A program made the position numbers and the translations under genes. From a virus (Duplodnaviria > Caudoviricetes), in IMG/VR virus record IMGVR_UViG_3300014208_000026, positions 96,001-160,000 of that record: a stretch of 64,000 nucleotides of DNA, one strand, 5' to 3'. Below, in pieces: positions 7,161 to 58,596 of the stretch. The notes under the pieces were generated by a model that did no database searches, was not told the origin of the DNA, and saw only the letters and a program-made list of their open reading frames with translations. The stretch's first letter is position 1. Every line of letters begins with the position of its first letter.

Positions 7161-10100
7161 ATGGCTTTCCTGAAGTTCGCAAATGCACGAATCATCACGC
7201 CGGACCTTGGTGGTCAGGCGGGGTGGAAAAAAGTGCGTACCGCGGCTAAGAAAGCTGACGTGTCCCCCGACCTTTTGGAGCAGGCCAGCGGTATTCTCGG
7301 GAAGCCTTTCAATCCCGATGACTACCTGCTGACTCACTGCACCATCGTTTCGAGCGTCGACGTGGAGCCTGTTCCTGGGGCCAAGATCGGTAAGATCAAG
7401 GAGAACGGCTTTACTGTCAATCGTATCTACGGTGACTACAGGATCACTGAAGACACTTTGGAGCAGATCAACGCGAACAAGGATGCATGGGCCCGTGGTG
7501 TCATTCTGAAGTCCTACCAGACGTTCAGGGGTGGCCAGAATTTCTGTTTTGCTCCTGGCACTGAAGTTCTGATGGCTGACGGAACTTACCGTCCTATCGA
7601 GAAGGTAGTGGCAGGGGACGAAGTGATCACGCATACGGGTGAGGCTCATAAGGTCACTCAGACTTTTGTTAGGGATTTCGAAGGCCCGATTCAGGCTCTC
7701 TACGTAGACCGATTCAAGGATCCTCTTCTCGTTACGGGAAATCATCCGTTCAGAGCCATTTCTGTCACAGCTTCTCAGTTGACCTCTTACTCTGGAGCTA
7801 AGCTTTCTAGTCAGGTTCGCTATCGAAGAGATCAGATAGTAGACTCCCTTCGGGATGGAGAGGGTCATTTTGGTAAGGCGTTTCCGGCAGTCCGCGAGAT
7901 CAAAACTCTCCTGGCTAAAAGCGCTATGCTAGCCGGGGACATTGCAGAAGCGATGGGCCATAAGAGAACTTATTCTTCTGTCATCATTCAGAGAGTTCTA
8001 AAGCGGCACACAGACCAGTTTTTTTCCCGTCCTTTGCTTGTTTCAGAGTATCCGTCTTTACAGAAGGGGCGGTGGTGCAGTCGAGTGTGGGCTGTTAGAG
8101 AAGACGCCCCTGATTTGCCGGATACTGACGTGAAGGCAGACAAAGATTGGGTAGCTGCTGAGCATTTCAAAGCCGGGGATTTCATTCTCGGCCCAGAGCA
8201 AAAGTTAGGGCAGATATCCGAACCTGAGAAGGCCACTCTTCTTGGTTATTACCTTGCAGAAGGGTGCCGTCTTGATCCTCATAAGGATTATGGGGTGTGT
8301 TTGGTTTTCGGGGCACATGAGCGAAATCTCGTAGAGCATGCTGCGAAGCTGGCTGAAGGGTGTTTCCCGGGAACTACGGCTCATATTCAGAATCCTAAAA
8401 ATGGGGCTTTGAGAGTAGATTTGCGCGGTTCTGAGATTTGTAAGTGGATGGTTCGAAACGGCGGCATTTATTCTGAATCAAAGCGTCTCCATCCGGACGT
8501 TTTCTCTTGGGACAGAGAATCTCTTTTGAGAATGTTTGCCGCGTGGATGGCTGGAGACGGGGATCATCACAAAGGAACCTTACGTCTTCGTGGAGTTTCC
8601 GTGTCTCATGAGCTTGCACAGCAAATGCACAGAGTTGCTGAGTTGTGTGGGATAAAATCTTCTGTTGTTTTTACGCGCCAAAAAATTGGCGAGGTTTGTA
8701 GTCAAGTGACAATGGTTATTGGGGGTGAGCCTCGCGTTTTCAACGTGATTCCTCGGCACCACGTGTGGACTGTTTTGGTATCTAAAGACTCCACTCCTGA
8801 AGTTACTTGCCGGAATATTCGGTGGGGGGTTCCTCTACACGTTGTTGAAGATGTGCACAAACGTCAGGAGTTTGCTTGGTGGGGTGGTTGCAGGGTTCAT
8901 AGGGTAGATTCTAATGAGTCTATCCCCTATAAAGGTAAAGTGCATAATATAGAGGTTGAGGAAGATCATTCCTATGTAGTCGATTATGGTATTGCGGTAC
9001 ATAATTGTGAGCACATACAAATCACGGAACTTTCCAAGGGCCGCATCATCGATGCCGTAGCCCGTGACGTTGGGAATTCGATTTACGTGGATATCCTGAT
9101 TGCTACGGACAGGAAGCACACGGACCTCATTCGGGATATCAAGTCGGGTAAGATGGGCACCCTCTCAATGGGTTGTTTCCTCCCCGGGACTCAGGTGTCT
9201 CTGGCTGACGGTAGTCGTGTAGCAATCGAAAACGTGCAGGCTGGAGACAAGGTTCTGACGCATAAGGGCCGTGCTCGCGAAGTGCTGAACAAGCAGGTTC
9301 GTGAGGGCGTGTGGAACATCCGGCGTATTCAGGTAGCCGGGGTTTCGGCTGTGATCACTGCAACGGACAATCACCCCTTCTACGTGCTTCGTGACGAGTG
9401 GGAGTGGATTCGGGCCGACGAACTTCAGGCAGGAGATCTCCTGTGTGTTCCTGTGGGGGATCAGACCGCTTCTGTTGTTCTTTCTATTGAGTCTGGTACC
9501 TACGAAGGTCCTGTCCATAACATGGAAGTGGCGGAGGACAACTCCTATGTTGTGGAGGGAGTCGCTGTTCACAACTGCACGACCGATTTTACTATCTGCA
9601 CCAAGTGCGGGCACGTCGCTGTCGACGATACTGACCTCTGCAGCCACATTAAATACGAGAAGGGCAACACCTTCTATTACCCCGATGGGAAGAAAGGTAT
9701 TGTTGCAGAGTTATGTGGGCATTCTTCAATCGATCCGACCGGAGGCGTCTATTTCATCGAAGCCTCTTGGGTTGGTAAGCCCGCATTCCTTGGCGCTGTG
9801 CTCCGTAACATCATCGAGGCCAGGGAAGTGTCGCCCTCTACCCGTAAGAAGGCTATGGAGGTTCTCTCCTCCCTGCCCCCGCAGTGGACTACGAATGGCC
9901 GTAAGAAGGCCGCCAGCATGTACCTCAGTGCTTTCGACGACGGGATGGATGAAGGGACCGAAGAGGCTCCGGCTGAATCCGAAGGAGCCCCTGCAGAGTC
10001 CGAAGGAGCCGCGTCTCCCTGGTCCGATCTCGAAGACAAGATGGTCCAGAAGATTCTCCAGAACGTCGAGAAGAAGCTGTCCGACCAGCTAGGTCCGGAC

Positions 10101-10475
10101 GGTAAGTCTGTGCCTTCTGCTCAGTCTGAGACGGCCCCGAACAACAACATCATCAAGCAGGCTGTCAAGAAGACGGCGGCTCAGTTCTACAACAACACTC
10201 TCTCCGCCATGCTCCGTACCGCTTCTTCGGATGCGGATCTCATGGATCGTGTGGCTGCATTGAATACTGCGTTCGGGATTTCCATCCCCGTGCCTCTGTA
10301 TCGTGCGGCTTTGAAATTCAGCGGTAGGAATACCACGCTGAAGGGTTATGTCGCCTCGTGCGAACGTGCTTTAGGCAGAAAGGTCGAAGCCGGGGAGGCC
10401 AAGACTTTAGTGCGTTTGGGGAAACTGCTGGAGCAGTTCTCCAATAAAACGGCAGCGAAACAGCAATCACGGTAG
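7161..10475 (+). CDS. Prohead maturation protease precursor (1104 aa; about 483 aa after removal of two inteins)
   Basis: Spliced exteins give NF^CEH and LSMG^CTTDFTICTKCG...FIEASWVGKPAF, the His/Ser pattern of HK97-type prohead proteases. Position upstream of scaffold and MCP. Confidence 0.85.
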   Translation: MAFLKFANARIITPDLGGQAGWKKVRTAAKKADVSPDLLEQASGILGKPFNPDDYLLTHCTIVSSVDVEPVPGAKIGKIKENGFTVNRIYGDYRITEDTLEQINANKDAWARGVILKSYQTFRGGQNFCFAPGTEVLMADGTYRPIEKVVAGDEVITHTGEAHKVTQTFVRDFEGPIQALYVDRFKDPLLVTGNHPFRAISVTASQLTSYSGAKLSSQVRYRRDQIVDSLRDGEGHFGKAFPAVREIKTLLAKSAMLAGDIAEAMGHKRTYSSVIIQRVLKRHTDQFFSRPLLVSEYPSLQKGRWCSRVWAVREDAPDLPDTDVKADKDWVAAEHFKAGDFILGPEQKLGQISEPEKATLLGYYLAEGCRLDPHKDYGVCLVFGAHERNLVEHAAKLAEGCFPGTTAHIQNPKNGALRVDLRGSEICKWMVRNGGIYSESKRLHPDVFSWDRESLLRMFAAWMAGDGDHHKGTLRLRGVSVSHELAQQMHRVAELCGIKSSVVFTRQKIGEVCSQVTMVIGGEPRVFNVIPRHHVWTVLVSKDSTPEVTCRNIRWGVPLHVVEDVHKRQEFAWWGGCRVHRVDSNESIPYKGKVHNIEVEEDHSYVVDYGIAVHNCEHIQITELSKGRIIDAVARDVGNSIYVDILIATDRKHTDLIRDIKSGKMGTLSMGCFLPGTQVSLADGSRVAIENVQAGDKVLTHKGRAREVLNKQVREGVWNIRRIQVAGVSAVITATDNHPFYVLRDEWEWIRADELQAGDLLCVPVGDQTASVVLSIESGTYEGPVHNMEVAEDNSYVVEGVAVHNCTTDFTICTKCGHVAVDDTDLCSHIKYEKGNTFYYPDGKKGIVAELCGHSSIDPTGGVYFIEASWVGKPAFLGAVLRNIIEAREVSPSTRKKAMEVLSSLPPQWTTNGRKKAASMYLSAFDDGMDEGTEEAPAESEGAPAESEGAASPWSDLEDKMVQKILQNVEKKLSDQLGPDGKSVPSAQSETAPNNNIIKQAVKKTAAQFYNNTLSAMLRTASSDADLMDRVAALNTAFGISIPVPLYRAALKFSGRNTTLKGYVASCERALGRKVEAGEAKTLVRLGKLLEQFSNKTAAKQQSR
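7545..9005 (+). mobile_element. Intein with LAGLIDADG homing endonuclease (487 aa)
   Basis: Starts CFAPGTEVLMADG; block B VTGNHPF; LLGYYLAEG and AWMAGDG motifs; ends VHNIEVEEDHSYVVDYGIAVHN followed by C+1. Confidence 0.95.
9174..9575 (+). mobile_element. Mini-intein (134 aa, no endonuclease)
   Basis: Starts CFLPGTQVSLADG; block B ATDNHPF; ends VHNMEVAEDNSYVVEGVAVHN followed by C+1. Confidence 0.95.
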
Positions 10476-12767: not shown

Positions 12768-13643
12768 ATGACTAACGTAAGTACCGCCCAGAAGCAAGAG
12801 ATCATCAGTCGCTACATCACCAGCCCCCAGGGCCGCGTCAAGCTGGCTGCCAGCATGACCCAGCCGCTTCGTACTCGGCGTGATTACACGTCGGTCGGCC
12901 GCAAGACTTTCCTGGTCGAGCAGCTTCCCGATGGCGCCTTGCCGCTGTACGATAAGGACCCCGACGTCACGGCGTTCGTGGTCGGCGAAGAAGGCGAGAA
13001 CATCCTGGCGGTCACGAAGCCTCGGCGCGTGATCTTCCCGCTGTTCGAGATCGCTTCGCTCCCCGAGATTCCTCTGACGCAGATCAAAGAACGTCGCTTC
13101 GATCTCATCGAGCGTGCTCAGGATCTGGCCCGTGCTCAGATCCAGGCCGCTGAGGATGAGCGCGTGTTCGCAATTCTGGACGCCATTGCCGTGGCGGGCT
13201 TTGATAGCCTTCCTGGCCAGATGAACCCTGACATCCCCGTCATTGCCCCCATCAGCCCGGCCGTCCTCGCGGATGCGTTCGCTCTGATCGAGGCTCATGA
13301 CCTTCGGGTTGCTCGTGTGTTCATGAATGCCCGCGATTACTCGGACCTGCGTAAGTGGGGCCGTGACATCCTGGACATCGAGTCCCAGGCTGCGCTGCTG
13401 AAGACTGGCCTGATGGCGACCCTCTGGGGCGCTCAGATCATCGTCAGCCGCCTTGTCCCCGTGGGCACCGTGTATGTCACTTGTGAAAGTGACATGTTTG
13501 GACGCATCCCCGTGCGTACGGAACTTACGGTTTTGAGTGCGGACGATCCCCGTGCGCGCACGATTGGGTTCTCCTGCTTCGAAAACCTGGGCATCGGGGC
13601 GTACAACCCCCGTGGCCTCACCCGTCTCACCGTAACCCGCTAG
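12768..13643 (+). CDS. Major capsid protein, HK97 fold (291 aa)
   Basis: GGAGG RBS; PLRTRRDY...GRK...PLFEIASLP...RRFDLIERAQ...AAEDERVF...LWGAQIIVS...ENLGIG pattern of large-phage MCPs; followed by a strong terminator. Confidence 0.9.
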   Translation: MTNVSTAQKQEIISRYITSPQGRVKLAASMTQPLRTRRDYTSVGRKTFLVEQLPDGALPLYDKDPDVTAFVVGEEGENILAVTKPRRVIFPLFEIASLPEIPLTQIKERRFDLIERAQDLARAQIQAAEDERVFAILDAIAVAGFDSLPGQMNPDIPVIAPISPAVLADAFALIEAHDLRVARVFMNARDYSDLRKWGRDILDIESQAALLKTGLMATLWGAQIIVSRLVPVGTVYVTCESDMFGRIPVRTELTVLSADDPRARTIGFSCFENLGIGAYNPRGLTRLTVTR

Positions 13644-32537: not shown

Positions 32538-32558
32538 CTATCCCCTTTCCTTTAGTAG
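32538..32558 (+). promoter_or_regulatory. Putative late promoter CTAT-N13-GTAG
   Basis: Exact motif; flanks nearly identical to 58561. Confidence 0.7.
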
Positions 32559-32577
32559 AACCTAAGGAGAACTCGTT

Positions 32578-33120
32578 ATGAAATCCCTGAAAGCTTCCGT
32601 TGTTCGACTGGCCTACGAGCACCCTGAGTTCCGTGGTGAGCTGCTGGGTGTGCTTGCAGCTCGGCAGGGCCGTAAGACCGCCGCTTCCACAGATCCCATT
32701 GGCAAAGGGAAGAATGGCTACATCGCTTTCTACAAGGGCAAGAAGGTGGAAGTGATGGCCGACACGAAGCTTCAGGCTCAGATCACGGCTGCTGCGTATT
32801 TCAAGGCGAAGAAGTCGTATGAAGTGGATGTTGAACTGGCTGAGACGGACGGTAAGCAGGTGACTCATAAACCGATGTTTGCTTCATCGGTTGAGACAGC
32901 GGCTAAGGCGGACCCAAATCCGTGGAAAGCCACGCACGAAATCACTTGGTCAAAAACTCGAAAAGCTCCTAAGAAAACAGTTAAGGTGATGTTGTCCTCG
33001 GACGGTCAAGTGTACACCAAGCCTGAGTGGGATGCTGGAGACAACGGGGATTTCAGTGTGCATAAGGGGGAATGGCAGTTCCAGGGTGAGCCTTTTGATG
33101 GCTCTGTCAAGAAGCTGTAG
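32578..33120 (+). CDS. Leader-bearing two-domain protein (180 aa); C-terminal domain shared with the 38045 gene
   Basis: AAGGAG RBS; MKSLKASVVRLAYEHPEFRGELLGVL...RKTAA; WKATH...YTKPEWDAG...GEW. Confidence 0.8.
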   Translation: MKSLKASVVRLAYEHPEFRGELLGVLAARQGRKTAASTDPIGKGKNGYIAFYKGKKVEVMADTKLQAQITAAAYFKAKKSYEVDVELAETDGKQVTHKPMFASSVETAAKADPNPWKATHEITWSKTRKAPKKTVKVMLSSDGQVYTKPEWDAGDNGDFSVHKGEWQFQGEPFDGSVKKL

Positions 33121-38665: not shown

Positions 38666-39910
38666 TTAGTTCTTTGGAGTCTGAATAGAGAAGGAGGCCG
38701 CAGTCATCATTCGACGGGCGTAGTCCTGTACGAGCTGACGCATCTTGTCGAATCGGCAGTTTCCGATTCGGGCTTTGACGTGTTCCAGCGTTTGTTCGGA
38801 CAGATCGATGGACCTGCCTCGATAGAAGCTTTTGTCTACGAACATCCAGGCATAGCCAGAAGAAGTCTGGGCCCCGTTTGCCAGATTGAACAGTACGTGG
38901 GACACAGAGGTCATCAACTGGGCGTCGGTGAACTTTCCGTCCGCTACGTCCTCGATGATCTTTTTCATCTCTACGCAGGCGTCCTCTACGTTCTTGGGGT
39001 TGGTGGCTGCGTAGAGAACAGCCGTGCCGTTATCCCAGGAGCCCATCTCGAACATCGCGGTATCGTAGCACAGGCCCTTCTCTTCTCGAAGCCGAAGGAA
39101 CGCCAGGGAGTGCATTCCGCCGCCGATGAGATCCTGGGCAATATCATCGGCGTGGTGATTCAAACAGCTATCCTTGAAGGCGAGCCCTGGCATGAGGAGG
39201 GCTACATACGCCTGATCGGCTGCATGTTGGAAGAGGTGGGTTTTCGGGGAGGCCCACGTTCCGGTATCCGATTCGATTGTCGGAATGCTGTTTGGAGTGC
39301 CGGGTTCCAGGACGTATTGGTCCAGAACGATGGAGAGGTCGGGGTTTGCAGAGAGATCCCCGACCAGGGCTACAACTACGTTCTGTGCGGTGTAGTTGGC
39401 GGCCTTGTAGACTTTCAGGTCGTCCAGGGTCATATCGAGGATATCCTGGCGCTCACCGAGTGTTTCTCTGCCCAGGATAGGGCCGAAGTGGGCGGTCTCG
39501 GTCATGCCGAAGAAGTGGGAGGCGGGGTCATCCTCGAACCTCTGGCGTTCTTCCAGAATGACGTTCCGCTCTCGTTCGAATTCATCCTGGTCCAGGGAAG
39601 GCGTGAAGGCCATTTCGCAGAGGTAGCCGAGGGCTTCCAGGATCTTGTCGGGGGTAGTGTCGATGTAGAATGCGGTTCGGTCGTTGTCAGTGTAGGCGTT
39701 CGTGCTACCTATGGCCGCGATGAGGCGGTTCATCTCTTCATAGGATCTTTTCGCTGTCCCTTTGAAGATCATATGCTCCAGGAAGTGGGCCGTTCCCGAT
39801 CGCACGTCCTGGATGGAGCCTGAGTTGACGATGATGCGGACCGACACGACCGGTGTCGGCATATGATGCTTGATGACCCGGAACCGGCCGATTGTTTCTA
39901 CGACGGGCAT
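38666..39910 (-). CDS. M16-family (pitrilysin/insulinase) zinc peptidase
   Basis: GTAHFLEHMIFKGT (HxxEH); NAYT; ERNVILEE; C-terminal GGGMHSLAFLRLREEKGLCY. Confidence 0.93.
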   Translation of the reverse strand: MPVVETIGRFRVIKHHMPTPVVSVRIIVNSGSIQDVRSGTAHFLEHMIFKGTAKRSYEEMNRLIAAIGSTNAYTDNDRTAFYIDTTPDKILEALGYLCEMAFTPSLDQDEFERERNVILEERQRFEDDPASHFFGMTETAHFGPILGRETLGERQDILDMTLDDLKVYKAANYTAQNVVVALVGDLSANPDLSIVLDQYVLEPGTPNSIPTIESDTGTWASPKTHLFQHAADQAYVALLMPGLAFKDSCLNHHADDIAQDLIGGGMHSLAFLRLREEKGLCYDTAMFEMGSWDNGTAVLYAATNPKNVEDACVEMKKIIEDVADGKFTDAQLMTSVSHVLFNLANGAQTSSGYAWMFVDKSFYRGRSIDLSEQTLEHVKARIGNCRFDKMRQLVQDYARRMMTAASFSIQTPKN

Positions 39911-49956: not shown

Positions 49957-50406
49957 GTGCCCATCTACGACTACCAGTGCTCCTGCGGGAAACAGTTCGA
50001 GAAGTCCGTCCGCTTTGCGGATAAGGACACCCCTCAGGAATGCCTCTGCGGAAAGAAAGTTCCTCGGGTTGGAGTGCCTGACACGGTAGCTTTCACGTTC
50101 AACCAGAAGACCTCCGGTATGGCTCCGCAGAACACGGGGGTTTCTTCTTTTGACGCCAACGCGGACAGGATCATCGGGACGGACGCCAAAGAGAAGTGGG
50201 CTCTCATCACCAAGAGGGTGAGGGACAAGCGGACCATTCTCCGTGACAACCCTGATGTGACTCCGGATCATATCACCCGATTGCCTGACGGGCACTATTC
50301 CCTTCAACCAGAACCTGAACGTCGGTCTCGGGCAGTTCTCAATAATGAGGCTATTGAAGCACTAAGAGTGAAGAGGGGCGCGACCTCTCCGACAACCTCC
50401 CGATAG
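49957..50406 (+). CDS. FmdB-family zinc-ribbon protein
   Basis: MPIYDYQCSCGKQFE...ECLCG; GGGAGG RBS; CTAT-N13-ATAG promoter variant at 49921. Confidence 0.8.
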   Translation: MPIYDYQCSCGKQFEKSVRFADKDTPQECLCGKKVPRVGVPDTVAFTFNQKTSGMAPQNTGVSSFDANADRIIGTDAKEKWALITKRVRDKRTILRDNPDVTPDHITRLPDGHYSLQPEPERRSRAVLNNEAIEALRVKRGATSPTTSR

Positions 50407-50522
50407 GGAGGACAGATAGATTCCCTAATGAAAACATGTTGTGCTGTTTGCGTTCCTCCTTCGGGAGGCCAGATGAAAATGGACGTGAGGTAATTGAACA
50501 ACTCTGTTGAGAGAGGTACAAA

Positions 50523-53500
50523 ATGGGTTTCCCCGGCAAGCAGTACGCGCCCCCTGGTGTCTACACTGAGACCACCACCGAGAATCCGGTCAGTGCGGTT
50601 CTCACGGGACTGAAGCTCCCCGTTTTCATGGGTGAGGGTAACGAGAACCTTGTGCAGACGGCACTTGAGGTTGTTCGTGGTTCTTCCGCTTCTGTGGACC
50701 AGCAGGTCGTGCAGGAGGACATGGACGGGCGTGCCGTGGTTTCGATCTCCGGTACTGGAGTCGTGACGCTCGGTGCTTTCGACGGTGTTCTGGACCGTAT
50801 CCAGGTTCGTAATTTCCCGCTGGTGTCCGGAGACGGCACTGGGGTTACGACCAACAGCCGCAACGCTGTGACGGTCACGATCAACCAACAGCCGATCGTC
50901 ATTCGGGCGGTTACTGGCGTCAATGGTGTCATCCAACTGGCCCAGGCTCCTGCTCTCGGCGATGTTGTAAGGGTTACTTACTTCTTCGACCGCACCGACA
51001 CTCTGACGACGGACACCGTCTCGGGTCAGGTTACAACGGACCCCGCGACGATCTATGGTGTGGTTGGTGTTGCGGACGTCGATGTGGGCGGGACTGAGAC
51101 TTTCGATTTCCTTTCGACGAACAACCAGTTGGTCCTGACGGTTGACCGCGAAGTGCAGACCACGATCACGATTCCGGTTGGGTCGTACTCGGCTCGGATG
51201 GTTGGGATCATCCTCGATTCTGCTGGTGTTGGTACTCTGACAGCTACTCGTTACGAAGACAACTTCGGTAAGTCGGCGGTTGTGCTTGTAGCGGACAATG
51301 ATATCACCATCGGGGCTGGCTCCGCCAATGCTGTACTCGGTCTCGTGGCAGGCCAGACCACGGCTCGTAACCGTACCTTCTATACCTACAACGGCCCCAT
51401 CGTCGACGGTTCCAACGGTGGTGTGACTACGACCGACCCGGGGACGGTGACGGTTCGTGTGGACGGCACTGCTGTAGTCCCCACGTCGGTGGACGGTTCC
51501 AGTAGGGCTGTGACTCTCCCCTACGCTCCGGCATCGGGTTCTACTGTCACGGTTACCTACTACTTCAATACGTGGCAGGACACTTTCGATTACCTCGCCC
51601 ACATTGGGGTTACGGACGTGACCCGTTGCGGTATCACGGCGGACCGCTCGGACTTCGTCGAGGGCGCTGACTTTGTGCTTCATGACGACAAGATCGTGTG
51701 GGGTACGGCTGCTCTCGTGGATGCTGGGACTACGGTATCGGGTTCCGGTTCCTTCGGATCGAACCAAATCACGCCGACCCTCGTGGACGTGCGGGCTTAT
51801 CTGGAGACCTGCAATACGGTCGTGGATACTTCGGTCACTCCCTCTGTGGTCAGCAAGCGAGTGTTCCAGCTTCCGTACCAGCCCACTACAGGTAACGGTC
51901 GCTCCACCCCGCTGGGTTCGAGCCTGTTCCAGTCGGTGTCGAATAACCGCATTGGTCTTCCGACTGATCGCCCTGACCTTGTGCTGGCTTACTGGGGTTA
52001 CAGCGTCCAGGATGCTCTGTCCCGAGGTGCCGTGACGGTAGTGAAGGTCGATTCGACGAACTCGACTTTCACGCTGGCTTCGGATGTGCCTCCGGATGCT
52101 AACGTCTACGCCACGTTCTACTACAACACGATCACGGACGCGACCTACACGATGACGTGTGTGACCCCCGGGGCCTCTGGTATCGGTACTTACACGGTTC
52201 AGGATTCCGCGGGTGATGACGTCTACGGTCTGACTTACAACACGGGTAGTAAGGGTTCCTCGCTGACGGGTATTGCCATTCAGTTCCCTTCGGGTTCTGA
52301 GTACACTCCGGATTTCAGGTTCGAGAGTGGGAGCCAGGGTCCGGTTGAAGAGGCAATTACCGTCCGGTTCGCCGCAACTCAGGACAAGCTGGCCAAGTAC
52401 GCTACTCCGGGTTACGGGCCTTACTACCCGATCTCGGGGGCTTCGGATCACGTGGGCCTTACGGTTGACGCCGCAGCCTACAATGTGGATCTTTCCACTC
52501 CTTCGGGGATTGCTGCAACGGGCGGTGGTTTCTTCGCCACCCTCGTCGGTGAAGAGGTCGTCTATACAGGTGGCGGGACAGCGGGTATCGTCGGTAGGAA
52601 CTTTGAGTTGGATGCCAACGAAGAGTTCAACCTGAAACTCGACGGGGTGACTTATACTGCGTCGTTCCCGATGAAGGCTGCTGCGACCCGTACGGTTGCG
52701 GACATGGCGTCTTACATCAACCGTGCAGTGGTTGGTGAGACAGGGGCTGCTCAGGCTGGTGGAGCAGCATCTATTACTCTGGCTTCCACGGCGAGTGATG
52801 TGGATGACTACTACGTAGGTTGGACGGTTTTCGTTAAAGCCGGTCCTGCGAACCACGACGTGCGAATCATCACCGCTTATAACGGCGGAACGAAAGTCGC
52901 TACGGTAGCTTATAACTTCACGGGCATACCTCTCATTACCAACACTTATACCCTGAGAAACATCAAGAGCGCGATGGGTGTTGCTCAGGCCAATATTGGT
53001 GGGTTGTCGACCGTTACTTTGGACACTTCGGCCAGTGCGGTAAATGACTACTACGTGGGATGGAAAATCTTTGTGACTACGGCTCTTGGAGTCTACTACG
53101 ACGAGAAGACCGTCACAGACTACGATGGGGCTACGAAGGTAGCTACGGTGAGTTCGGCTTATGGAGTACTTCCTGCTGCTACAGACCTCTACTACCTGTA
53201 TGATTTGACTCCCGTTCGTGCTAAGTACACCGCGGCAGGGCATTTTACTGGTAGCTACACCGTAGCTCTCGCTTCCGGTTTCCACACCCTTCGTTTCACC
53301 TATACCGGCTTCCCGACTACAGCAGCGAACGTCGTTGCTACCATTGCGGATGGGACTTACACGCCTTCCGCCCTTGCCGCAGCGGTAGGGGACGCCATCA
53401 ACAAGGCTTTGAGAGCCCATGCCAGTTTTGCTCTGGATCCGCCTCCGACTGTGGACGTTACGCTCAATGGTTCGGGTCAGTTGGAGTTCGCTTTCACCAA

Positions 53501-55991
53501 GTCCCCGTTGGACAGCAGTGCCGTGTTTGAGTTCGTTGCCACGGCGGCTCTTGCCGATGACTTCTCTCCCGTCGCCGGTATTTCTACGGATGATGCCACT
53601 GGTAAGGGTCAGGCCAAGATTATCGACGGTGCGGTGTCGACCTATTACTCGGACAGTAATGCCACGGAAGCGGCCCAGGATCGCTTGATCCTTCGTAACC
53701 GCCTTGTCCCTGGTAGTGCTCTGGGTAGCCCGTTGCCCTTCGCGGCCATGGCACAAACGGGTATTGAGGTTCTGGCGGGTTCGGCTAATGCCAAGGCGGG
53801 TCTCACCACAGGTTCTACGGGCGAGGCCGGTTGGAAGGCGACGGTTCTGCCTGCAACTCTGGTCGGTTCTGCCGTGGATACCGCCCTGACGGCTACCGTG
53901 CCTCAGGTTACGTTCTATGCTGATGGCGGCACTACGGATCAGAACAACATCTTCAAGTTCAATTTCGAAGGTACTCCTATTCAGGTTACCTTCGCAGATT
54001 CCACCGGAACGGCCATTGCGGCTGGAGCGTCGGCGGTTGTGCCTCTCTGCAATGACGGTGTCGCGACTGATTGGGTGGTTAAGCAGATCGCTGATGCCAT
54101 TGACACAGCCTTCGGTCTGGTTGCAGGCACTTCTCTGACCAACGGGTATGTTGCCCTCGAAGGAGATGCTGTCCGTTTCATGGGTAGTGTTTCCGATACC
54201 ACATCCGTAGTGACTATTGGGGCTGGTAATGCAAACTCCCTTCTGGGGTTCGTTGAAGGTACTACGGCGGTCCGCACTTCGGCTACGGCCAAGGCGATTG
54301 CCTCGGCTTGTATGAACCAGAACGATGTAACGGCTCCCGCTCTCACTGACTGGTTGAACACTAAGTTCACGGCGCCGGATGCTTCCAGTTTCGCAAAGGA
54401 GGCTCTGGCTTCCACGATCCTGGACGATGCTGGCCGTGAGTACTTGTTCTTCGAAAGCCAGGGTGCTCCTGGTGCTTACGGGTCCAGCACGAGCGTCTAC
54501 TGGACTGCCAGCATCACGGATTCCGTGCTTCTGCATGGGACTGGGGTCAATGCTGAAGTCGGTGATGGCGCTGTTGGTGACGACGGGGTCTCGGGCTACT
54601 TCGTGACCTCTTCGGTTTCTGACGGTTCGGGCTCGGCTAACACCTCTGTGTTCAATGCCGTTGCTGGTACCAGCTATGGTCAGGACGGCGTGGTTGGTCA
54701 GACCTATCGCGACGACGTTACGGGTCTGACGTTCACGGTTCTGCCTCTGGCTGGCGGGCAGAAGTACCCCACTGGGGTCAATGCCACGTTCCAGTTCCAG
54801 TGCCGTAAGACCTTTACGACGAATTCGAACATCCCGATCACGACGATCCCTGGTATCGAGCTTCTCGTGACGAACACCGCTTCGGTCGGGGCTGCGAACA
54901 CGGCCCTGCTTTCCACCTACCACCGGTCCGGCAATGAGCCTGGAATCGGGGAGTACTACTACGCGACCTACATTTACACGAAACAGAACTTCAGCACTGC
55001 TCTCTACACGAAGCTTTCGATCATCGAGCAGGCATTCGGAGAGACTAGCCCTGACAACCCCGTTTCCTTGGCCGCTCACCTTGCCATGCTGAACGGGGCG
55101 GTCATCGTCGGGATCAAGCAGATTCTGAAGGGCGAGAATGGGGTCCAGGGTACCGTGACGGCTTACAGGGATGCCATTGACGAACTCGAAGGTTCGCTCC
55201 CTGGTTCGGTCTACCCCGATATCCTGTGCTCGCTCCGTGGGGATAACCTGGAGCTGTACCAGTATCTCCTCCGGCACTGCGACTTGATGAGCAGCATCCG
55301 CTATCGGGCGGAGCGCACTGCGGTGTGCGGTACGGCCAGTGGCACCTCTCCGACCACGGTCCAGTCGTGGGCTCAGAACATCGGTGGGGCTCGGTTCCGC
55401 ATGATGTACCCCGATTCGGCCACGCTGAACCTGACGGATGCCCTGAACGTGACCACCGAATACTTGGTCGACGGTCCGTTCTTGGCTGCGGCTCAGATTG
55501 GGCGAGTTGCCTCTCCCAACGTGGACGTGGCGACTCCGTGGACCGGCATGAACCTCGTTGGGTTCACCGGCCTGGGTCGGAACCTCGATATCGTGACGAT
55601 GAACCAGATTGCTCAGAAGGGCGTCACGCTCGTCGAGTCTCGTCCCCCGAACCTGCGTATTCGGCACGGGCTCACGACTGACATGACCAACAATCTGACG
55701 AAGATCCCGACGATCTACCAGATCACCGATGAGGTCCAGCAGCGTACCCGTGACGCCATGGAGAAGTTCATCGGTGTCAAGTTCCTGCCGGGTATTCTGA
55801 GTCAGATCGAAGGTCGTCAGGCTCAGGTGTTCAAGTTCCTCGTGGACGCCCAGATCATCTCGGCTTACACGGGGATCCATGCGAGCATCGATCCTTCAAA
55901 TCCTACAACTGCGGACCTCAGCGCTGCATTTTCTCCTATCTTCCCCCTCGAAATGATCCTGGTCCGCTACTTTTTGCGGAGCAGCCTCTAG
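50523..55991 (+). CDS. Contractile tail sheath protein, very large (1822 aa)
   Basis: N-terminal PPGVYTE; C-terminal sheath-like domain ending FIGVKF...FSPIFPLEMILVRYFL; GAGG RBS; beta-rich central insert. Confidence 0.88.
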   Translation: MGFPGKQYAPPGVYTETTTENPVSAVLTGLKLPVFMGEGNENLVQTALEVVRGSSASVDQQVVQEDMDGRAVVSISGTGVVTLGAFDGVLDRIQVRNFPLVSGDGTGVTTNSRNAVTVTINQQPIVIRAVTGVNGVIQLAQAPALGDVVRVTYFFDRTDTLTTDTVSGQVTTDPATIYGVVGVADVDVGGTETFDFLSTNNQLVLTVDREVQTTITIPVGSYSARMVGIILDSAGVGTLTATRYEDNFGKSAVVLVADNDITIGAGSANAVLGLVAGQTTARNRTFYTYNGPIVDGSNGGVTTTDPGTVTVRVDGTAVVPTSVDGSSRAVTLPYAPASGSTVTVTYYFNTWQDTFDYLAHIGVTDVTRCGITADRSDFVEGADFVLHDDKIVWGTAALVDAGTTVSGSGSFGSNQITPTLVDVRAYLETCNTVVDTSVTPSVVSKRVFQLPYQPTTGNGRSTPLGSSLFQSVSNNRIGLPTDRPDLVLAYWGYSVQDALSRGAVTVVKVDSTNSTFTLASDVPPDANVYATFYYNTITDATYTMTCVTPGASGIGTYTVQDSAGDDVYGLTYNTGSKGSSLTGIAIQFPSGSEYTPDFRFESGSQGPVEEAITVRFAATQDKLAKYATPGYGPYYPISGASDHVGLTVDAAAYNVDLSTPSGIAATGGGFFATLVGEEVVYTGGGTAGIVGRNFELDANEEFNLKLDGVTYTASFPMKAAATRTVADMASYINRAVVGETGAAQAGGAASITLASTASDVDDYYVGWTVFVKAGPANHDVRIITAYNGGTKVATVAYNFTGIPLITNTYTLRNIKSAMGVAQANIGGLSTVTLDTSASAVNDYYVGWKIFVTTALGVYYDEKTVTDYDGATKVATVSSAYGVLPAATDLYYLYDLTPVRAKYTAAGHFTGSYTVALASGFHTLRFTYTGFPTTAANVVATIADGTYTPSALAAAVGDAINKALRAHASFALDPPPTVDVTLNGSGQLEFAFTKSPLDSSAVFEFVATAALADDFSPVAGISTDDATGKGQAKIIDGAVSTYYSDSNATEAAQDRLILRNRLVPGSALGSPLPFAAMAQTGIEVLAGSANAKAGLTTGSTGEAGWKATVLPATLVGSAVDTALTATVPQVTFYADGGTTDQNNIFKFNFEGTPIQVTFADSTGTAIAAGASAVVPLCNDGVATDWVVKQIADAIDTAFGLVAGTSLTNGYVALEGDAVRFMGSVSDTTSVVTIGAGNANSLLGFVEGTTAVRTSATAKAIASACMNQNDVTAPALTDWLNTKFTAPDASSFAKEALASTILDDAGREYLFFESQGAPGAYGSSTSVYWTASITDSVLLHGTGVNAEVGDGAVGDDGVSGYFVTSSVSDGSGSANTSVFNAVAGTSYGQDGVVGQTYRDDVTGLTFTVLPLAGGQKYPTGVNATFQFQCRKTFTTNSNIPITTIPGIELLVTNTASVGAANTALLSTYHRSGNEPGIGEYYYATYIYTKQNFSTALYTKLSIIEQAFGETSPDNPVSLAAHLAMLNGAVIVGIKQILKGENGVQGTVTAYRDAIDELEGSLPGSVYPDILCSLRGDNLELYQYLLRHCDLMSSIRYRAERTAVCGTASGTSPTTVQSWAQNIGGARFRMMYPDSATLNLTDALNVTTEYLVDGPFLAAAQIGRVASPNVDVATPWTGMNLVGFTGLGRNLDIVTMNQIAQKGVTLVESRPPNLRIRHGLTTDMTNNLTKIPTIYQITDEVQQRTRDAMEKFIGVKFLPGILSQIEGRQAQVFKFLVDAQIISAYTGIHASIDPSNPTTADLSAAFSPIFPLEMILVRYFLRSSL

Positions 55992-56055: not shown

Positions 56056-57567
56056 ATGAGGATAGGAGTAGGTGATTTGATGGGTGGTTGTAGATCCAAA
56101 GCGACTGTAGAAGAGATATTGGCAGCTTTCCATACCGATGAAGGTTTTAAGGCCGTAGCCAAACGTTTGGGTCTGTCTCCCAACACTCTTCGGCCTATAT
56201 GGCAAGAGAAATTCGGAGAAGACGCTTTCGTGAGTAGAGGGAAAGCCCTCCAAGCCCGAGCCGCAGCCAAGACCCTCAAGGAAACAGCAGGCAGTCGGGT
56301 CTATAAAAAGGAGACAGTTCCCTGTTCAAAATGCGGGATTCAAGTGTTGCTGAAAAAGACTCAAACGGCTCAGCTTAATTGGGAGGCTTTCGTCTGTGAT
56401 GCCTGTAAGTTTGATCGGGCCTGCCCGGTTTGCGGGCAACTCGTGGATGGCAAGAAGGGTCTTGCCATCCACTTCGGACACCAGCGAAATGCAGAGGACA
56501 AGGCACATACTATCTACCAGGAAACTTTGAGCGCCCGTTATTGGGGGGATCTTGTTGAAGGGGAGGACTTTGTCAGTTGTCTTTTTTGTGGTGCCCGAGT
56601 TAAAAGCTTGGTTTTGCATCTGACTGCCGCTCATGCCATGATGGTTGGGGCTTATCGAGAGAGATTCCCCGACGCCCCTATCCAGTCTCGTAAATGTTCG
56701 GAAGCCCGCTCGGAAGCTGCTCAGAACCGAGAAGACTACGGTAAAGGAGAAACTAAGGACATTATTTGTCCCGATTGCGGGGTGTCTTGGACGGGCTCTA
56801 AATTTCTAGCCCCTGAAATGCATGACCTTCGGTGCTCCTCTTGCCGTGACAAAGCTGAAAAACTTTTGAAACAAGAGACGGAGACTTATTGGGCTGGAAA
56901 AACAGAGCCAGATGATTATGTTGAGTGCCGATTGTGTGGGTGGAAAGGGTCGGTTATTTTGGGGCATGTCTTAGGAGCCCACCCTCAAGTTCCGATGCCA
57001 GAGTACAGGAAACAGTTTCCTGGTGCCCCACTGGCAGCTACCGGAGTGTTGACTTACCCTACCCATAGGATTGATCTTACCAAGGATGACCTTGAACCTT
57101 TCAAGGACGAGAAAGGTCGAGTACAAGTTGCTAAGGCAGCAGAAGCTCTCAACTGTTCGTGGGTTACGGTTCTCCACTATTGCAGAGAAACAGGTATTCC
57201 GACTCGAAACAAGTTGGCATTCCAGAAGTTGGTGCTAGATACTGTGTCTGGCCTTTTGGGGGAGCCCTACAAATGGGAGTGGCACGACCCCAGGATTGTG
57301 AACCCTCTGACAGGCTACTGTCTATTTTTTGATGGGTTTTTCTCAGGCCCCAATCTTTTGGTCGAGGTGCACGGAAGACAGCACGATGTTCAAGTGGATT
57401 ACTGGCACAAGACCAGAGATATTTTCGAGCAGATGCAAGAGAGAGATCATTTGAAAGCCAGAATGGCGGTCCAGTTGGGATTCAAGATGCTGACTATCCG
57501 TTGGAACGAGCCCTACACGGATGTGGGGTATCTGAGGAAGAAACTCGCTAGTATTGGCGTGCTGTAG
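56056..57567 (+). CDS. Free-standing putative homing endonuclease: HTH, repeated zinc fingers, C-terminal PD-(D/E)XK (DUF559-like) domain
   Basis: Two CxxCG...H...H...YR..FP.AP repeats; LFFDGFF...LLVEVHGRQH...LTIRW; ATG 56080 with GGAG/AGGTG RBS is an alternative start. Confidence 0.78.
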   Translation: MRIGVGDLMGGCRSKATVEEILAAFHTDEGFKAVAKRLGLSPNTLRPIWQEKFGEDAFVSRGKALQARAAAKTLKETAGSRVYKKETVPCSKCGIQVLLKKTQTAQLNWEAFVCDACKFDRACPVCGQLVDGKKGLAIHFGHQRNAEDKAHTIYQETLSARYWGDLVEGEDFVSCLFCGARVKSLVLHLTAAHAMMVGAYRERFPDAPIQSRKCSEARSEAAQNREDYGKGETKDIICPDCGVSWTGSKFLAPEMHDLRCSSCRDKAEKLLKQETETYWAGKTEPDDYVECRLCGWKGSVILGHVLGAHPQVPMPEYRKQFPGAPLAATGVLTYPTHRIDLTKDDLEPFKDEKGRVQVAKAAEALNCSWVTVLHYCRETGIPTRNKLAFQKLVLDTVSGLLGEPYKWEWHDPRIVNPLTGYCLFFDGFFSGPNLLVEVHGRQHDVQVDYWHKTRDIFEQMQERDHLKARMAVQLGFKMLTIRWNEPYTDVGYLRKKLASIGVL

Positions 57568-57582
57568 ATAGGACGAGAAGAA

Positions 57583-58539
57583 CTAGATCACCGCAGGAAC
57601 GCCAGCCTTCATCAGGTCCGACTTTTCTTTCGTGAGCAGGCGGTCGAGAAGAACGGCCTGATCATGGGCTCCCGTAGTTTCCATCAAGTGGACGCAGAAG
57701 GACGCCACTAACATCGGGGTCGTGAGCTTCTTGGCGACGAGGGCCAGCAGAGCCTTGAATGCCATCGGGAAGCGGAGCGTGAAGCCAGCGGTCTTTACGT
57801 TAGTATCGGTGCTGGCCAGAACAGTAGCGGCCGGTTCAACATTCCCGAGGGCCACGAAATCCGACTTCTCACGGGTGAAGAGGCGGTCGACCAGAACGGC
57901 CTGATCGTGGTAACCCTTGGTTTCGAGCAGATAGACCACAAAGGCGGCCACCGTCAGGGGGTTCGGAAGTTTGGCGGCTACGACGCCCATTAGCGTCTTG
58001 AAAGCCATGGGGTAGTGGAACACAAAACCTGCTGTCTTCACTGCTGGAGCGCTGGCGGTCTTGTCCGCTTCAGGCTCCGCCTTCTTCAAGTCCCCCTTCT
58101 TCTGAGCGAGGATCTTGTCGATTTTAACTGCTTCCGCCGTGGCGCCCAGGACGTCCAGGAGGTGAACGCAGAAAGCTGCGGCAACCAGCGGGTTGGGCAT
58201 TTTCTTGGCAACCATGGCCAGGAGAGCCTTCTGAGCCGGATTCAGCTTGAGCTGGTAGGTCGGGCCGTCAGCAGCCTTCTTGGCAATGTCTTCGATCTTG
58301 CCTTTGTTGGCTTCCCACTTAGCTTTCGCTTCGGGGCTCATGCTATCCGTGGGGTCTTTGCCCGCCTTCTTGGCAATGTCTTCAATCTTGCCCTTGTTTG
58401 CTTCCCACTTGGCCTTGGCCTCGGGGCTCATGTTCTCGGTGGGGTCCGCTCCGGCGGTCTTGAGCACGCCGAGCAGTTCGGAGCGGAATTTCGGAAGGTC
58501 GTGAGCGAGTCGGACGATGGACGCACGAAGATTCTTCAT
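57583..58539 (-). CDS. Leader-bearing repeat protein (318 aa): two 29-aa and three ~60-aa repeats separated by KTAG/KKAG
   Basis: MKNLRASIVRLAHDLPKFRSELLGVLKTAG; DPT..MSPEAKAKWEANKGKIEDIAKKA x2; P.A.K.L...VA.K...P...A.F.V.L x3. Confidence 0.85.
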   Translation of the reverse strand: MKNLRASIVRLAHDLPKFRSELLGVLKTAGADPTENMSPEAKAKWEANKGKIEDIAKKAGKDPTDSMSPEAKAKWEANKGKIEDIAKKAADGPTYQLKLNPAQKALLAMVAKKMPNPLVAAAFCVHLLDVLGATAEAVKIDKILAQKKGDLKKAEPEADKTASAPAVKTAGFVFHYPMAFKTLMGVVAAKLPNPLTVAAFVVYLLETKGYHDQAVLVDRLFTREKSDFVALGNVEPAATVLASTDTNVKTAGFTLRFPMAFKALLALVAKKLTTPMLVASFCVHLMETTGAHDQAVLLDRLLTKEKSDLMKAGVPAVI

Positions 58540-58560
58540 AGGATGTTTCTCCCTTAGGTT

Positions 58561-58581
58561 CTACTAAGGGAAAGGCTATAG
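58561..58581 (-). promoter_or_regulatory. Putative late promoter CTAT-N13-GTAG (minus strand)
   Basis: Exact motif; flanks nearly identical to 32538. Confidence 0.7.
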
Positions 58582-58596
58582 GGGGAAAATTGAACG

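Follow-up and report, generated by a model that had tools for sequence, protein, structure and literature searches.

The locus analysed here raises the question of whether a small phage protein made of a leader, repeated units and a recurrent Lys-x-Ala motif is a polyprotein cut into its parts inside the head, or whether it does its work in one piece. The gene, referred to below as P0001, comes from a 257-kb viral contig of a huge uncultured groundwater phage, the completeness of which was estimated at about half. It was studied in a window of 64,000 nucleotides (positions 96,001 to 160,000 of the IMG/VR record IMGVR_UViG_3300014208_000026). The initial annotation of this window had described a leader followed by two short repeats and three long units and had proposed that the prohead protease releases five small peptides of two types inside the head. 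The described architecture was borne out; the gene lies on the minus strand, which had not been stated, and is divided as follows (window coordinates):

57583..58539 (-), whole gene, 318 codons and a stop, from the ORF list and translation
58450..58539 (-), leader tag, residues 1-30 (leader 1-26, KTAG 27-30), from the leader HMM and AF2 helices
58363..58452 (-), short module copy 1, residues 30-59 (G-ADPTENMSPEAKAKWEANKGKIEDIAKKA), then G60, from the module profile match
58273..58362 (-), short module copy 2, residues 60-89 (G-KDPTDSMSPEAKAKWEANKGKIEDIAKKA), then A90, from the module profile and the tandem DNA repeat
58054..58272 (-), long helical unit 1, residues 90-162, ending D-K-T-A (KTAS 160-163), from unit alignments
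58030..58053 (-), 8-residue spacer SAPAVKTA, residues 163-170, between the KTAS and KTAG candidate sites, from motif positions
57787..58029 (-), long helical unit 2 and linker, residues 171-251, ending V-K-T-A, from alignments and AF2
57586..57786 (-), long helical unit 3, C-terminal, residues 252-318, from alignments; the portion matched by a 108-residue relative (P0005)

The 34-kDa protein P0001 thus comprises an address tag, two phage-specific peptide modules and three small helical domains. The short repeats start with (A/K)DPT(E/D)(N/S)MSPEAKAKWEANKGKIEDIA and end with KKAG (57-60) and KKAA (87-90), and the linkers between the long units read ...DKTAS-APAV-KTAG (160-171) and ...TNV-KTAG (249-252). 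In a simple genome-trained codon model P0001 ranked 5th of the 202 called genes in codon-usage score per residue and is therefore regarded as a real gene with typical coding statistics. The stretch was present in two groundwater DNA metagenomes, one of them probably its source, as identical contigs, offering no natural variation, and no RNA sequencing runs containing it were listed.

Comparisons of the whole protein brought little. No Pfam, PHROG or PDB sequence match was found, tblastn against GenBank phages gave zero matches, a word-index search for whole-protein relatives returned the self-match alone, and the ESM Atlas had no usable match. AlphaFold run on the full protein without an alignment gave a pLDDT of 44, unusable except for the helical content. 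An exhaustive HMMER search with residues 31-318 yielded five matches, which were P0001, P0005 and three proteins that carry the short module.

The leader of P0001 is a helix-Pro-helix peptide (AF2 helices 2-14 and 16-27) that ends L-K-T-A-G. It is basic (pI 11), N-terminal and helical, with Lys or Arg at P3. A leader HMM (first 30 residues) matched eight ORFs of the genome with E values of 3e-19 to 3e-7, seven of them at the N terminus and one at the C terminus; residues 1-32 of P0001 scored E 1.9e-17 and belong to this family. The consensus, x-L-R-x-x-x-V-R-L-A-H-x-x-P-E-L-R-x-x-L-L-P-L-L, covers about 26 residues at the protein end. All seven N-terminal copies are followed after 0-8 residues by [KR]-x-A-[GAT] (KTAG, KTAA, RTAA, KTAG, KLAG, RTAA and KTAT); in the case of the C-terminal copy, R-L-A-S stands immediately before the tag. 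Whichever end carries the tag, the motif is thus found in every case on the side facing the remainder of the protein, and this switching of sides with the position of the tag is new here. The tag occurs also outside this genome, in P0005, in two loci of other phages (L061 and L069) and in others. In L069:2989-3393 and L061:2815-3882 it shares one chain with the short module described below, in either order; the L061 protein runs tag, module, tag and a partial third tag. A reading of P0001 as a RiPP precursor was rejected because the leader is common to unrelated proteins of 150-270 residues. Complex prediction for the tag and the major capsid protein, computed without control runs, scored 0.00.

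Among the leaders, that of the gene at window 32578 is closest to the one in P0001, with 60 % identity, and the resemblance continues upstream of both genes:

58541..58596 (-), shared upstream block (…CCCTATAGCCTTTCCCTTAGTAGAACCTAAGGGAGAAAC…) with Shine-Dalgarno-like AAGGGAG, from alignment with the upstream region of the 32578 gene

The near-identical block of about 55 nt (CCTTTCCnTTAGTAGAACCTAAGG and the Shine-Dalgarno sequence) stands at 32544-32577 (+) and 58541-58596 (-). These are its two copies in the 257-kb genome, both placed before leader-tagged genes, the ones with the two most similar leaders. Such an arrangement suggests that expression signals and leader may have moved jointly as a mobile promoter/RBS/leader cassette. 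A 61-codon ORF directly upstream of P0001 (58597-58782, minus strand), whose N-terminal segment (GTGLILLTAAYLLACLVA) is hydrophobic and whose tail is rich in His and Cys, has its stop at the 5' edge of the shared block; the codon model made no gene call there.

The two short repeats of P0001 are identical at 28 of 31 residues and at 77 of 93 nucleotides, and form a 90-nt tandem repeat of 81 % identity. Ten codons differ synonymously and three non-synonymously, and both copies are therefore considered to be under purifying selection. In the exhaustive HMMER search the repeats matched three large proteins carrying ...[RK]FEEGKPADPTxNMSxEDAxxW+xxxxxxKDxFK-x-A..., which defines a full module of about 40 residues (...FEEGKPADPTxNMSxEDAxxW...KDxFK-x-A). 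A pattern scan located this DPTxNMS module at 60 loci in viral contigs, mostly of 70-536 kb, and at a single locus among 185,579 species genomes; it is strongly conserved and specific to phages and viruses. It has no Pfam family, and no paper that contains its sequence was found; Pfam OAS1_C matches on module-bearing proteins were treated as chance, as they fall on the short DPT motif. Of 71 distinct copies, 66 have [KR]-x-A at +25/+26 relative to the Asp; A/S/G follows it, and right after that residue (after P1') the conservation stops. Module-bearing proteins contain 288 K.A[GAS] matches, compared with 85 expected and 95 for the reversed control.

When 72 copies of the module from other phages were made into a profile, it matched P0001 twice without gaps, at residues 31-60 (i-E 9.5e-11) and at residues 62-91 (i-E 2.1e-8). 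The register is kept throughout, with D-P-T, M-S, W at +13, D at +22 and K-x-A at +25 to +27. The N-terminal [RK]-F-E-E-G-x-P part is absent from both P0001 copies, which start with (A/K)DPT right after K-x-A-G, as do trimmed tandem copies in three other loci (P0004, L058 and L059). The DPTxNMS family and its in-register homology to the short repeats are new here. The earlier proposal, in which the two short units would be among the released effector or structural peptides, was not supported as stated, as they are diverged, trimmed copies of a widespread phage module that ends in K-x-A. The module is found in phage proteins of many unrelated kinds, where 7 copies are N-terminal, 12 C-terminal and 59 internal, often in tandem. 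The short units of P0001 therefore look like cassettes, and judging by these occurrences they are more likely portable tags, addresses or cut sites than effectors or cargo.

The three long units do align with one another, as had been claimed, at 37-57 % identity and with 18 invariant columns. Structure prediction and a fold search, which the initial annotation had recommended for this unit, were fruitful in the first part only: AF2 applied to residues 171-240 with a four-sequence alignment gave three helices at a modest mean pLDDT of 65.6, but Foldseek of this model against BFVD and PDB returned nothing at E ≤0.001. Their GRAVY values (0 to +0.61) mark the units as hydrophobic, and in charge they are neutral to mildly basic. 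A transmembrane reading was rejected, as the hydrophobic helices span about 16 residues and the highest 19-residue Kyte-Doolittle mean, 1.72, is borderline.

The sole detectable relative of the long unit is P0005, a protein of 108 residues consisting of the leader and one unit, which matched all three P0001 units in offline BLAST with E values of 1e-10 to 9e-7. The long-unit profile found P0005 alone among proteins of 36-142 aa, and nothing in viral contigs. Since P0005 is made of the leader and a single unit, the long unit is taken to be an autonomous domain delivered with the tag; this single-unit relative is new here. The P0005 gene is carried by a contig of about 254 kb from a huge phage, where it comes immediately behind the neck genes and a further leader-tagged gene; in the present window its slot is held by the leader-tagged gene at 32578. 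On the related contig of about 254 kb (L005:9415-10327) two leader-tagged genes, one of 194 aa and that of P0005, stand back to back after the neck genes, which looks like a variable cargo slot.

A candidate for a protease that might act on such a protein lies among the head genes. The head module has the canonical gene order, in which a 1104-aa ORF with two Hint/intein inserts (window 7161-10475) is followed by a 459-aa scaffold candidate (window 10491) and by the major capsid protein:

12768-13643 (+), major capsid protein, phrog_2522, E 3e-50

From this order the intein-bearing 1104-aa ORF is the candidate for the head protease. Against Pfam and PHROGs it matched Hint domains and one phrog of unknown function, with no protease match; a comparison of its C-extein with PDB sequences gave nothing credible, and PF03420 and PF04586 had no match anywhere in the genome. 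The capsid protein is 49 % identical to that of Tunturiibacter phage Tunturi_5 and 37 % identical to gp27 of Bacillus phage G among deposited phages. It has about 2,000 detectable relatives (E ≤1e-10), many on contigs of 200-530 kb, and identity is 83-97 % for the best 120 of these about 2,000. P0001, by contrast, lacks an orthologue. The capsid shell is extremely conserved, while the putative cargo genes turn over fast. P0001 itself is not part of the head module: its gene is on the opposite strand, 45 kb further downstream. Syntenic relatives were sought with the neighbouring 391-aa protein, and none were found.

The motif K-[TK]-A-[GAS] occurs at six sites in P0001, one per module border. 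In 20,000 shuffles of the protein K.A[GAS] was present 1.55 times on average, compared with six observed (P 0.003). For KTA[GAS] the mean was 0.10 and the observed number, four, was never reached, although the two KTAG copies of units 2 and 3 are not independent events, as these units are duplicates. VKTAG has been kept between the long units although the surrounding linkers have diverged. The enrichment extends to the whole genome: the 202 called genes contain 32 KTA[GAS] sites, about 6-fold more than the 5.5 expected from composition, and 48 [KR]TA[GAS] sites compared with 11.2 expected, and four permuted or reversed control motifs stayed at expectation. The [KR]TA[GAS] sites cluster in head-region proteins, with four each in the protease candidate, the scaffold candidate and P0001. 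Among the other leader-tagged proteins the number of [KR]-x-A-[GAST] matches is one to three, mostly one, placed at the tag, and P0001 is accordingly the most site-dense small example, a point that is new here. A search of the literature found no characterised phage prohead protease that cuts at K-x-A, and the phage G proteomics paper reported no cleavage sites.

In the preferred reading, to which a probability of roughly 40 % is assigned, P0001 is a late tagged precursor composed of portable parts, which would be cut in the head into three helical domains and small peptides. The tag, and perhaps the modules too, would dock the precursor inside the assembling prohead, and the head-maturation protease, possibly the 1104-aa candidate, would then cut after the Ala of K-[TK]-A|[GAS] at the six sites. 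The predicted products are three helical domains of 7-9 kDa and small tag peptides, so that a single docking event might deliver three copies of the helical domain. This reading preserves the polyprotein idea of the initial annotation in so far as one ORF holds several autonomous units with one conserved short motif between them (six K-x-A-[GAS] sites at unit borders), the motif being the one that closes the leader tag and is enriched about 6-fold; it abandons the short units as effector peptides.

The closest precedents for such a precursor, by analogy, are the internal proteins of T4 and the multi-site head processing of SPN3US and other phiKZ-like phages. In T4 the capsid-targeting sequence of IPI-III and Alt, trimmed by the prohead protease gp21, is likewise a short N-terminal tag on unrelated small proteins, with a conserved motif directly after the tag and with genes scattered outside the core head genes. 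The logic proposed here, docking in the prohead core followed by trimming, is the same. Unlike the T4 tag of about 10 residues, the present tag has about 26 residues and two helices and can be C-terminal, its motif is K-x-A|[GAS] and not L/I-x-E, and P0001 carries three putative cargo domains and two extra modules per chain. No homology of P0001 to the T4 targeting sequence or internal proteins was detected in the Pfam, PHROG and PDB sequence searches. The prohead protease of SPN3US (gp245, A-x-E motif) makes several cuts within the propeptides of head proteins, and there are N-terminal propeptides as short as 20-24 residues (PMC10052503). Multiple motif copies, multi-site propeptide cuts and short N-terminal propeptides are thus shared with the processed head and ejection proteins of this group, but motif and clade differ, the capsid protein here being closest to those of Tunturi_5 and phage G, and the multiple cuts of SPN3US break up a propeptide, while those proposed here would free repeated folded units from one another.

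Two more distant systems bear a resemblance. Herpesvirus assemblin has scaffold M and R sites of the form (V/L/I)-x-A|S. Ala at P1, a small residue (Ser, Ala or Gly) at P1' and scaffold-associated substrates are common to both, but here the strongest determinant is Lys or Arg at P3, and the phage protease is a candidate from gene order. Viral polyproteins and multi-core precursor peptides also consist of one ORF with a leader and repeated units separated by a short motif. The units of P0001, however, are helical domains of 65-80 residues and not enzymes or short cores, and its leader is common to unrelated single-domain proteins, so the resemblance is one of design only.

It is possible, though rather unlikely, that P0001 is never cleaved and acts as a modular repeat protein, in which the tag and the DPT modules bind another partner (an assembly site, a membrane or a host factor) and K-x-A-[GAS] is an inherited helical end-cap. 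K-x-A is indeed integral to, and in register in, both the DPT module and the leader family, and the recurrence of the motif at the borders therefore follows in part from module duplication; on this view the K-x-A ends may be nothing more than conserved module sequence passed on by duplication. The distance of the gene from the head genes points in the same direction. An end-cap, however, does not readily account for the about 6-fold enrichment of KTA[GAS], which holds outside the modules too, with the four sites each in the scaffold and protease candidates, nor for the retention of VKTAG in the linkers between the long units, where the rest has diverged. The change of side with the tag, after it when N-terminal and before it when C-terminal, also speaks against an end-cap.

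A cut at K-x-A made purely for clearance before DNA packaging is an improbable alternative. P0001 would then be a scaffold-like or core assembly helper that leaves no functional cargo fragment. Like the scaffold candidate it is all-helical and rich in sites, and the two proteins rank 5th and 1st, respectively, in codon score; propeptide fragments, moreover, generally leave the head (PMC10052503). P0001 nevertheless has no similarity to the scaffold candidate, and a unit that is autonomous and leader-tagged in another phage (P0005) and is kept here in three diverged, selected copies exceeds what a spacer would need.

The phage also encodes a peptidase of a different kind, which was considered as a candidate leader- or peptide-processing enzyme:

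38666-39910 (-), M16 (insulinase/pitrilysin-type) metallopeptidase, 414 aa, E 9e-28 and 2e-22 for its two halves

M16 enzymes act on short peptides and presequences. A role as leader peptidase would resemble that of the mitochondrial processing peptidase, which takes off presequences that are basic and amphipathic and have Arg at position -2 or -3. The zinc motif HxxEH is intact in the phage enzyme (H-F-L-E-H), and the leader is basic and helical with K/R at P3. That this peptidase removes the tags in the cytoplasm, in a process unrelated to the capsid, is nonetheless very improbable, as a head protease would account better for the motif sites found in the scaffold and protease candidates.

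If the preferred reading of P0001 as a cleaved precursor is correct, it may be asked how far it extends. More speculatively, and with little likelihood at present, the huge phages related to phage G might possess a modular peptide grammar of portable cassettes, the two-helix tag and the DPTxNMS module, each of which would join a docking or recognition helix to a K-x-A scissile site. P0001 would in that case be a multiplexed cargo precursor that brings in three copies of a new hydrophobic three-helix domain with each docking, and this domain might act on the host, for example at the membrane, after ejection. Such a grammar could direct a protein of any kind, or a chain of domains, to the capsid and have it cut out there. 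Were the K-x-A sites true cleavage sites, sequence would suffice to read the packaged proteome of a clade that is very large and almost wholly uncultivated, and the tags would offer ready-made handles for bringing foreign proteins into large capsids. P0001 would be a good test substrate for this, being small, with six sites and with fragment sizes that are easily resolved.

Two further observations concern the flank of the gene. The Arg-rich frame of 1858 codons at 50304-55880 (-) runs antisense to a 1822-codon gene at 50523-55991 (+); the codon model chose the latter, and the antisense frame was taken as a composition artefact and not a gene. Between this 1822-aa structural gene and P0001 lies a gene at 56056-57567 (+) for a 503-aa protein with a ROS/MucR-type zinc-finger match (E 5e-10) and weak HNH/homing-endonuclease PHROG matches. 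It is convergent with P0001, and its end is 15 bp from the P0001 stop.
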